A stretch of DNA of 64,000 nt from an uncultured Gemmatimonadaceae bacterium (GTDB lineage Bacteria; Gemmatimonadota; Gemmatimonadetes; Gemmatimonadales; Gemmatimonadaceae). A program made the position numbers and the translations under genes. Location of the stretch: positions 288,001 through 352,000 of the forward strand of contig CAVUDW010000002.1 of NCBI GenBank assembly GCA_963740355.1, written 5' to 3'. Below the pieces are notes generated by a model. The model was not told the DNA's origin. It did not search any database and saw only the letters and a list, made by a program, of their open reading frames with translations. Positions 31,188 to 32,516 of the stretch are shown piece by piece (position 1 is the first letter of the stretch; the number at the start of each line of letters is the position of its first letter).

Positions 31188-31226
31188 TTCTGCAACTGCT
31201 TTAACGCAGAGTAGCTGTGTTGAAAG

Positions 31227-32162
31227 TCAAGCCGTGGCGGGCGTGGGGGTCCGCCACGGTGTTTGCGTTTTGACCATCGCGTTGAGGATGGTGAGGAGGC
31301 GGCGGAGGCACGCGATCTTGGCGACTTTGGTGGGCTTCCCGGCGGCGCGCAGCGCCGCGTAGACGGGCTTGAGGACCGGATTCCATTGTGTGGCCACATG
31401 GGTGGCCATGTAGAGGATCGAGCGAATCGTTGCCCGCCCGCCCCAGCACACGCGGGCACCGCGGAATTGCCCGGATTCCTGCGCGAGCGGCGCGACGCCC
31501 ACGAGCGCGGCAATGGCGCGCCGATTCAGCGTCCCCAATTCGGGCAACAGGGCGACCAAGTACCGTGCGCTCTGCTGGCCGATGCCCGGCACGCTCGTCA
31601 GGAGCGTCACCTGCGCTTGCCAGGCCGCATTCCGTTCGATCAGTTCGCCGATCTCATTGTCGATGTCACGCAGCGCCTCGGCGAGCGCCTCCAACGTCCC
31701 GCGCACATTCGTCGCCACGCGCGCGGTCGCGACGTGCAGGCGATTCTTCTCCATCGTCTGCATCGTGACCAACTGCCGGCGCCGTTCCACCAAGGCCGCC
31801 AGCGCCTGCTGCTCCGCGTCGGCGAGCGGCCGGACGGGTGGGGCGAGCACGGCGCCAAACCGCGCCAGGATGCGCGCATCCACGCGATCCGTCTTCGCCA
31901 ACTGGCCGGTGCTGCGCGCGAACTCGCGCACCTGCCGCGGATTGACGACCGCGACGGGGATCCCGGCGCCGGTGAGCGCGCCGGCGACGGCGCGATGATA
32001 CGTGCCCGTCGCTTCCAGCACGACCAAGGTCGGCGGCTGCGCGGTGAGCGCGGTGACGAAGGCGTCGATGTCCGCCGCCGTATTGCGGAGCTGCGTCACC
32101 GCACCGTCGTGGACCGCCACATCCAAGTGGGCCTTGCTGACATCAATGCCGAGATACGTCAT
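31227..32162 (-). CDS. IS110 family transposase/recombinase (311 aa)
   Basis: DEDD RuvC-like motifs [28 protein letters not shown]; catalytic Ser in [19 protein letters not shown] before ATG 32162. Confidence 0.95.
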
Positions 32163-32174
32163 ACTGCCTCCAGG

Positions 32175-32345
32175 TGACGACCGCGCGCGCCCTGCCTTGC
32201 GAGATGCGGGATCGCGTCGGCGTCCCTGGTAGCTGTCCGGGCTTGTAGCGATCGGGACGACGGCGCTCTGACTCTGCGACGGGCTCACGGCGCCCGGGGC
32301 GCTCCGAACGAGCTGCCGCCGTCCCGGAGATTTAGCTTCTGTGCG
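32175..32345 (-). ncRNA. Predicted IS110 bridge RNA (target-binding loop ~32326-32253, donor-binding loop ~32242-32189); ends approximate
   Basis: Two stem-internal loop-stem modules. Loop segments match the donor (ACAGCTAC at 32236-32229; GCAAG at 32200-32196) and the target (GCGCC at 32302-32298; CGCAGAG at 32278-32272). Confidence 0.8.
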
Positions 32346-32359
32346 AGGAGACATACAAG

Positions 32360-32516
32360 GCGCAGAGACGCAGAGAACTGCAAGGGCAAGACAACGGCGC
32401 TGGTAACAGCAACAGCAACAGCAACAGCCACGGCAAGGGCCAGGGCAACTGCCTTGACGCAGAACAGAAAACTGCGGTACTGCACCAGCCGCAGAACTGC
32501 ACAGCCGCAGAACTGC
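32360..32516. repeat. Intergenic repeat block: (RCGCAGAG)n arm, (AACAGC)4 and a 72-bp arm
   Basis: GCGCAGAGACGCAGAG at 32360-32375; AACAGC tandem at 32405-32428; 32445-32516 is an imperfect inverted copy of 33940-34011. Confidence 0.85.

Follow-up and report, generated by a model that had tools for sequence, protein, structure and literature searches.

We identified an insertion sequence of the IS110 group in a 64,000-nt stretch of DNA from an uncultured Gemmatimonadaceae bacterium (assembly GCA_963740355.1, contig CAVUDW010000002.1, positions 288,001 to 352,000), hereafter the window, in which coordinates are counted. The element is very probably intact and recently active, of the IS621 type, and equipped with a two-loop bridge RNA encoded in its leader. 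Like IS621, it is an autonomous insertion sequence, and it represents a new example of a system whose mechanism is already known. Its ends are fixed by seven genomic copies and by an allele of the same locus without the insertion, and the loops of its predicted RNA covary, across orthologues, with the sites that they would read.

Boundaries, genomic copies and the empty site

The mobile unit is 1148 bp long and lies on the minus strand, at 31210-32357 or 31212-32359 (the two spans differ in the CT core copy that they include). The junction strings quoted in the initial annotation are all present on the minus strand, where the left junction reads TCTGCGC-CT-TGTAT (32366-32353) and the right junction ACAGCTA-CT-CTGCG (31218-31205). 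The span given there, 31205..32366, places both junctions correctly and also takes in 7 nt of target flank on the left and 5 nt on the right, which do not belong to the element. The junctions are made up of the following parts.

32360..32366, minus strand: left target half (LT) TCTGCGC; host flank outside the element, retained in the empty-site contig
32358..32359, minus strand: core dinucleotide CT of the left junction; kept in all listed orthologues, and the 2-nt overlap at the empty-site joint
32357-32353, minus strand: right donor half TGTAT; CT-TGTAT is invariant in 23 aligned orthologues
31212..31218, minus strand: left donor half ACAGCTA, with which the element ends
31210..31211, minus strand: core CT of the right junction; seen in the junction sequence, the copies and the empty-site contig
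31205..31209, minus strand: right target half CTGCG; host flank, with ACAGCTACTCTGCG occurring 7 times in the genome

The non-coding ends measure 195 nt from core to ATG on the left and 15 nt from stop codon to core on the right. Elements of the IS110 group have a long left non-coding end and a short right one, and the arrangement is reversed in the IS1111 group; the window element has the IS110 layout.

Seven copies of the element are present in the genome, five of them 100% identical, one 98% and one 96%, and the open reading frames are intact in all seven. Substitutions in the genes of the two diverged copies are mostly synonymous, with 21 nucleotide changes giving 2 amino acid changes and 44 giving 9. 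CT stands at both junctions of every copy, and the last bases of the query, including CTGCG, were matched in 7/7 copies (the right flank is printed for 5/7). LT TCTGCGC is identical in six copies; the seventh adjoins the end of another insertion sequence, reads CCGCGC instead of CTGCGC and keeps GCGC-CT-CTGCG only. The flanks beyond the 14-nt target differ between copies. The insertions do not sit in unrelated targets: six share the whole 14-nt site and the seventh shares GCGC-CT-CTGCG.

The same locus was also found without the element. A 161-nt contig from another sequencing run (X2) carries the empty allele TCTGCGC-CT-CTGCG with a single CT, which is the empty target that had been predicted by rejoining the flanks. 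This contig joins 31209 to 32358, so that 1148 nt are skipped and the 2-nt overlap is the CT core. On the right it carries 108 nt of unique flank, with 4 differences from 31102-31209, and on the left 53 nt, with 1 difference from 32358-32410. The insertion is scarless at a 2-nt core, with no duplication beyond the core, as is typical of the IS110 group.

CTCTGCG(C/T) units follow each other in tandem in the target, so that the boundary could formally lie 8 nt further out. We considered such a left boundary, with the preceding CT as core and a donor reading ..CT-CTGCGCC, and rejected it: CT-TGTAT is invariant in orthologues with unrelated targets, and the empty-site contig retains both repeat units. 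Among 27 orthologous elements from other phyla, again with unrelated targets, the ends are always ACAGNNN-CT ... CT-TGTAT.

These data also bear on whether the copies are immobile relics that were spread by duplication of repeat regions and not by recent transposition, which we consider very improbable. The joined-donor 14-nt string has 0 matches in the assembly, as a relic would have it; this is, however, what an assembly is expected to give under either reading. Duplicated relics would be hard to reconcile with five copies that are 100% identical and yet differ in their flanks outside the 14-nt target, with seven intact frames in which the diverged copies have accumulated mostly synonymous changes, or with a locus that holds the insertion in one sample and lacks it in another.

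Recombinase, predicted left-end RNA and guide segments

The gene and the sequences that would form a promoter across the joined ends are located as follows.

31227..32162, minus strand: recombinase gene, 311 aa, with a DEDD RuvC-like domain, a coiled coil and a Tnp domain with the catalytic serine
31225..31230, minus strand: TTGACT, candidate -35 box; shares bases with the stop codon and precedes the core by 13 nt
32355-32350, minus strand: -10-like hexamer TATGTC, its role suggested by its spacing to the right-end TTGACT

The protein is an IS110 recombinase, as had been proposed. It matches PF01548 (DEDD_Tnp_IS110; 93.7 bits, cut-off 29, 1.3e-26) and PF02371 (57.3 bits, cut-off 21.3, 2.1e-15), and passes the NCBIfam equivalog NF033542, 'IS110 family RNA-guided transposase', over profile positions 1-343/343 (211 bits, cut-off 140). 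The IS621 structure 8wt6 aligns over residues 2-303 (E 5.8e-33), and the ISCro4 structure 9t56 is the best match among solved structures, over the same residues (E 1.2e-35). D7, E50, D92, D95 and S230-G231 align with D11, E60, D102, D105 and S241-G242 of IS621, its reported catalytic residues (PMC11208158); the PDB chain string is 2 residues off the native IS621 numbering. The initial annotation called the element intact and compact (311 aa): the former holds for 7/7 copies, and the latter only in a relative sense, because 311 aa lies within the published size range of IS110 recombinases, about 300-460 aa (PMC11208160).

When the ends are joined, TTGACT stands 17 bp upstream of TATGTC, which suggests that a sigma-70-type promoter would be rebuilt at the junction. 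TTGAC(T/C) is found 13 nt upstream of the core in 5/7 orthologue groups (A, D, E, F and H), and groups G and I have only a truncated TGAC/GACT at that spacing. A promoter scan returned no promoter-like site on the minus strand of the integrated copy, which fits a junction promoter, if weakly. A promoter across the joined ends has been described for IS621 (PMC11208160). No RNA sequencing run containing the element was found. In the 98% copy (locus L006, C3:1839923-1841084 of genome G000), a T-to-C change at element position 1137 turns TTGACT into CTGACT; the change is synonymous in the overlapping last codons, and the leader is otherwise identical.

To examine the left end, relatives were collected from species-representative genomes, of which 154 encode one; the best 80 loci (36-60% protein identity) were kept, and 23 left ends with distinct sequences were aligned with MAFFT. 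The left end folds into two successive modules, each with a stem, an internal loop and a hairpin, as in a bridge RNA and as the initial annotation had claimed. The four-helix structure was derived partly with RNAalifold and partly by hand, the inner hairpin of module 1 being added in the latter way. The modules and their guide segments are listed below.

32256..32323, minus strand: target-binding module; outer stem 32323-32310 with 32268-32256, inner hairpin 32296-32292 with 32284-32280
32298..32302, minus strand: left target guide GCGCC, with the sequence of LT positions 4-7 and core C; complementary to the bottom strand
32278-32272, minus strand: right target guide CGCAGAG, complement of CT-CTGCG; own score 7/8
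32271-32270, minus strand: handshake bases TC, directly 3' of the right target guide
32189..32242, minus strand: donor-binding module; outer stem GCCC 32242-32239 with GGGC 32192-32189, inner hairpin 32226-32223 with 32211-32208
32229..32236, minus strand: left donor guide ACAGCTAC, equal to the left donor half plus core C
32200-32196, minus strand: right donor guide GCAAG, which pairs with CTTGT with one G-T wobble; GCAAGG is conserved in the alignment
32195-32194, minus strand: handshake bases GC, complementary to target positions 7 and 6

Covariation across the 23 orthologues supports this fold. Helix 1 has 13 pairs, 10 of them compensatory, and is 95.5% paired; helix 2 is 86.4% paired, and helices 3 and 4 are 97.7% paired each, with 2 compensatory pairs each. 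Altogether, the 25 pairs are formed in 94.7% of 550 cells, compared with 38-48% after a shift of the 3' partners by 1-3 columns, a comparison that is biased in favour of the structure since it was taken from the same sequences. Compensatory double changes occur in 17/25 pairs, and the covariation measures were reached by 0/500 shuffles. The single-sequence minimum-energy fold (z = -2.31) recovers module 1 and misfolds module 2, so that the two-module fold is owed to orthologue covariation and not to the single-sequence prediction.

A covariance model built from this alignment, R1, matches the window at 32326-32185 with 82.1 bits, and in the genome it finds exactly the seven copies plus one match with E = 0.47. 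Among 30 loci outside the model-building set it is found at full length upstream of the transposase in 29, including ISEc32, and scores 58.5 bits on a Klebsiella plasmid element and 67.3 bits on a Paraburkholderia element; L066 is the sole partial match (E = 0.72). The leader is under tighter constraint than the gene, with 1 change over 408 leader positions in the two diverged copies and 64 over 1916 positions elsewhere (Fisher p = 9e-5). A Dehalococcoidia contig (L014) has two bridge-RNA genes, 120-256 on the minus strand and 321-456 on the plus strand (115.7 and 118.9 bits), which lie head to head 65 nt apart and therefore indicate two IS110 copies inserted back to back.

The four guide strings that had been proposed are present in the loops assigned to them, with the complementarity claimed. 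Their chance occurrence was estimated from 200000 mononucleotide shuffles of the 188-nt leader. GCGCC occurs in 66% and GCAAG/ACAAG in 30% of the shuffles, so that both 5-mers are uninformative alone in this GC-rich leader; CGCAGAG occurs in 2.9% and ACAGCTAC in 0.19%, and all four strings in the right order were found in 0/200000. In the first loop, the right guide pairs at 7/7 positions, and the guides of the second loop correspond likewise to the joined ends of the element itself. TACAAG (32247-32242), a perfect complement of CTTGTA, was also considered as the right donor guide and was rejected, since it lies in the linker at a position that is not conserved in orthologues.

Moreover, the loop segments of orthologues change with the sites of each element. 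One orthologue carries TGTCACCCT and TGCTCAG for TGTCACC-CT-GAGCA, and another GGTCATCC and TCGCTCAG for GGTCATC-CT-GAGCGA; likewise, the donors ACAGCTA, ACAGTTG, ACAGTCG and ACAGATG are each accompanied by a matching left donor guide. The summed scores of guides against their own sites exceed the means after permutation of sites among elements for the right target guide (152 vs 96.7), the left target guide (102 vs 65.7) and the left donor guide (153 vs 82.8). Each score was reached by 0/10000 permutations, which ignore kinship among the elements, so the figures are not probabilities. The match of guides to target and donor, first noted in one element, is in this way borne out across its relatives.

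A further property of a bridge RNA, absent from the initial annotation, was found in both loops. In IS621, guide bases 3' of the right target and right donor guides pair with position 7 of the other DNA, an arrangement termed the handshake (PMC11208158). Here, the first handshake base of the target loop pairs with donor position 7 in 23/23 orthologues, as U opposite A in the window element and its closest relative and as C opposite G elsewhere; that of the donor loop pairs with target position 7, again in 23/23. The pairs switch between U-A and C-G and between A-T and G-C, respectively, and the second handshake position pairs in 14/23 and 8/23 orthologues.

It has been argued in older literature, cited in PMC11208160, that an IS110 element's non-coding ends regulate recombinase expression, and two of the four guide matches are at chance level. 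Both points would suit a leader that is a cis-regulatory 5' untranslated region for transposase expression only, its matches to ends and flanks being incidental. Such a region would not lead one to expect loop segments that vary, beyond the stems, with each orthologue's own target and donor, or an 8-mer at the homologous loop position that is identical to the element's far end in every clade; in addition, the bridge RNA mechanism is experimentally established for IS621 (PMC11208160, PMC11208158). We regard a purely regulatory leader as barely tenable, and a bridge RNA as the very probable explanation of the left end.

By analogy with the family, which suggests the circle, the promoter activity, the RNA production and the RNA-guided catalysis, we propose the following mechanism. 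The 1148-bp unit would excise without a scar and circularise, joining ACAGCTA-CT-TGTAT, and the circle would set the right-end TTGACT 17 bp upstream of the left-end TATGTC and so rebuild the promoter. This junction promoter would drive transcription of the left end into a bridge RNA of ~150-165 nt, and probably also that of the recombinase message. The second loop, through ACAGCTAC and (AU..)GCAAG, would recognise the joined ends of the element itself. Strand exchange at the CT core would be carried out by a tetramer of the 311-aa DEDD/Ser recombinase, after which the base 3' of each right-hand guide (U and G) would pair with position 7 of the other DNA. Insertion would then occur at ..GCGC-CT-CTGCG.. 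sites in a host repeat family that resembles repetitive extragenic palindromic (REP) sequences.

Target choice within the host repeat family

The target lies in a host repeat family, as had been proposed. The target 14-mer TCTGCGCCTCTGCG has 13 unoccupied occurrences against 0.13 expected, three of which overlap the LT of an occupied site. The repeat unit GTTCTGCGGCTGT is present in 50 copies (0.22 expected), the family ends in CTCTGCG(C/T) tandems and also includes the unit GCAGTT, and CTCTGCGTCTCTGCG occurs 29 times (0.02 expected). Two repeat clusters in inverted orientation, 32367-32521 and 33870-34030, lie between convergent gene ends. From these features, the family looks like a REP-like extragenic repeat. 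The window copy is inserted between the 3' ends of convergent frames, near 34050 (minus strand) and 31187 (plus strand), so that the suggestion of a safe harbour is plausible for this copy, the one whose gene context was examined.

A near-cognate 15-mer, with T at left-target position 7, is present at 29 sites, and 0/7 copies are found there. This agrees with a reading of GCGC-C; with C and T interchangeable at this position, it would have a probability of roughly (19/48)^6 = 0.004.

Several observations weigh against our interpretation. The left target guide pairs at 5/9 of the IS621 positions, that is, four target bases and the core C; at positions 1-3 the guide has GGA where the target has TCT, which do not pair even if wobble is allowed, and a C faces the core T. 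The 5-mer involved, GCGCC, is the one found in 66% of the leader shuffles, a chance-level match when taken alone. The sole site that matches the guide also at positions 1-3, GGAGCGCCTCTGCG, is empty; it is not part of the repeat family and is possibly located within a gene. The empty site is known from one low-depth contig (depth 3.1), so its support is good, not overwhelming, and the kinship ignored by the permutations has to be added to this list. Furthermore, the left end has no match in Rfam 15 (scan of 30000-35000, E up to 10), and a distant-DNA search of E. coli genomes seeded with ISEc32 returned copies of ISEc32 and a pseudogenised IS110 element, but no intact IS621.

The left guide was inspected further. 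It stands 1 nt out of register in both the MAFFT and the covariance-model alignments, and the model alignment brings no resolution. If the inner hairpin is read by hand, GCGC-C is back in the orthologue register, and the missing pairs are not regained. Left-guide matches of 5-6 nt are common in the clade. The right guide has 7 nt compared with 4 in IS621, so the total recognised is 11 bp, equal to that of IS621.

The element and its RNA may be as described and the target choice still half RNA-guided, with the right guide and core reading CT-CTGCG and LT being recognised otherwise, by protein or DNA structure. This would explain why the left guide, four target bases and the core C, matches at chance level, why the unpaired TCT at positions 1-3 is present in 6/7 insertions, and why the one site matching at these positions is empty; a target stem-loop has, moreover, been described as a second specificity layer for ISPpu10 in a preprint (10.64898/2026.03.19.712850). 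However, TCT would be conserved without any recognition, being part of the repeat unit CTCTGCG, and the seventh copy has CCGCGC instead of CTGCGC. The vacancy of all 29 T-position-7 sites is as the GCGC-C reading expects, short left guides are a common feature of the clade, and no conserved stem-loop was seen in the upstream flanks, which were compared by eye only. Half-guided choice is therefore unlikely in our view, and we retain it because of the weak left guide and the unoccupied site that matches at positions 1-3. We favour recognition of the target through both guides and the core.

A related proposal concerns the whole clade, whose units measure 1129-1308 bp (computed with both cores) and whose recombinases are near 311 aa where coverage is full. 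The clade could represent a naturally minimal bridge system, without a 5' stem-loop, with right-shifted recognition, and with LT checked by non-pairing means. The recognition window of such a system may comprise a left guide of ~4 nt plus the core and a right guide of 5 nt. We consider this proposal doubtful. If it is true, the unpaired TCT and the unused positions-1-3 site would be signs of a further layer of specificity not based on RNA, which has had no prior study in this phylum.

Related elements and neighbouring observations

IS621 of Escherichia coli (PMC11208160, PMC11208158) resembles the window element in protein architecture and catalytic residues, in its CT core, and in its long left and very short right end. 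It also shares a left-end RNA with the target loop before the donor loop, a discontiguous right donor guide ending in CAAG, handshake bases 3' of the right-hand guides and a repeated extragenic insertion site, and its -35 and -10 boxes, in the right and left end respectively, have putative counterparts here. The two differ in protein sequence (identity about 35%, judged by eye from the alignment) and in size (326 aa in IS621, 311 aa here). IS621 has a 9-nt left and a 4-nt right guide (PMC11208160), whereas the guides here cover four target bases plus C on the left and 7 nt on the right, and are thus right-shifted. IS621 has a 5' stem-loop, for which there is no room here because ~16 nt separate the inferred transcription start from the first module. 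The target of IS621 is ATCAGGCCTAC, and that of the window element is GCGC-CT-CTGCG in a Gemmatimonadaceae-type repeat; the left donor half here is ACAGCTA. The IS621 donor string given in the initial annotation is not found in the main text of either PMC11208160 or PMC11208158 (0 occurrences).

Among the best 80 loci of the 154 genomes, the closest relatives are IS110 elements in a Gemmatimonadaceae metagenome-assembled genome (L008-L010), with 60% protein identity. Their donor ACAGCTA-CT-TGTAT and right guide CGCAGAG are identical to those of the window element, they have the same right target, CTG(C/T)GG, and their targets are also CTCTGCG-like repeats. They differ in the left guide segment, which reads TCGTGGC-C, and in their variable left targets, TGTGTC, TGCGGC and CGCGAC.

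ISEc32, from E. coli plasmids, has 42% protein identity (tblastn), and its leader matches R1 over the full length (46.5 bits, E 1.8e-8); ISCro4 (PDB 9t56) is, as noted above, the best solved-structure match for the transposase (E 1.2e-35). In contrast to the window element, both come from another phylum and have low-GC leaders. ISPpu9 and ISPpu10 of Pseudomonas putida are, as described (PMC12288879; 10.64898/2026.03.19.712850), multicopy IS110-family elements inserted, in every case, in a repeated extragenic sequence; the target stem-loop reported to be needed by ISPpu10 has no counterpart here that could be seen by eye.

The window element is a well-documented natural example of bridge-RNA-type transposition from the Gemmatimonadaceae. 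Thousands of bridge RNAs have been predicted already (PMC11208160); a full-text search, judged by title and abstract, returned no paper on IS110 elements in Gemmatimonadota. The 7 insertions, 13 free perfect sites, 29 unused near-cognates and empty-site allele together form a natural read-out of which target positions are discriminated. The small recombinase, short leader and long right guide could be of interest for the engineering of compact bridge recombinases.

Several further observations were made on other elements and in the surrounding sequence. Three E. coli loci (L099, L100 and L102), from three unrelated strains, carry a pseudogenised IS110-family element, with an internal stop or frameshift, at a shared position flanked by two zinc-ribbon protein genes; the term used for it in newer annotations is 'RNA-guided transposase'. 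The only Rfam match below E = 1 in 30000-35000 is CcsR1 at 30267-30355 on the minus strand (27.8 bits against a gathering score of 65.3, E 0.00086); it is unrelated to the left end, lies where reading frames overlap and is probably due to chance. A hexamer repeat, (AACAGC)x5.3, at 32405-32436 in the repeat region coincides with a contig depth of about 790-2800 in four metagenome runs; AACAGC is a common low-complexity word, and the high depth is therefore not informative about this locus.

An IS3-family element (NF033516) lies at 32522-33794 on the minus strand, about 155 bp from the left end of the IS110 element, with ends TGTC...GACA and the frames orfA (33741-33277) and orfB (33280-32567). 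It has five genomic copies of 99.2-100% identity, all five in or beside the same repeat family. One of them (contig C3, about 1515717) directly adjoins the LT of another IS110 copy, which accounts for the flank ACCGCGC at that site.

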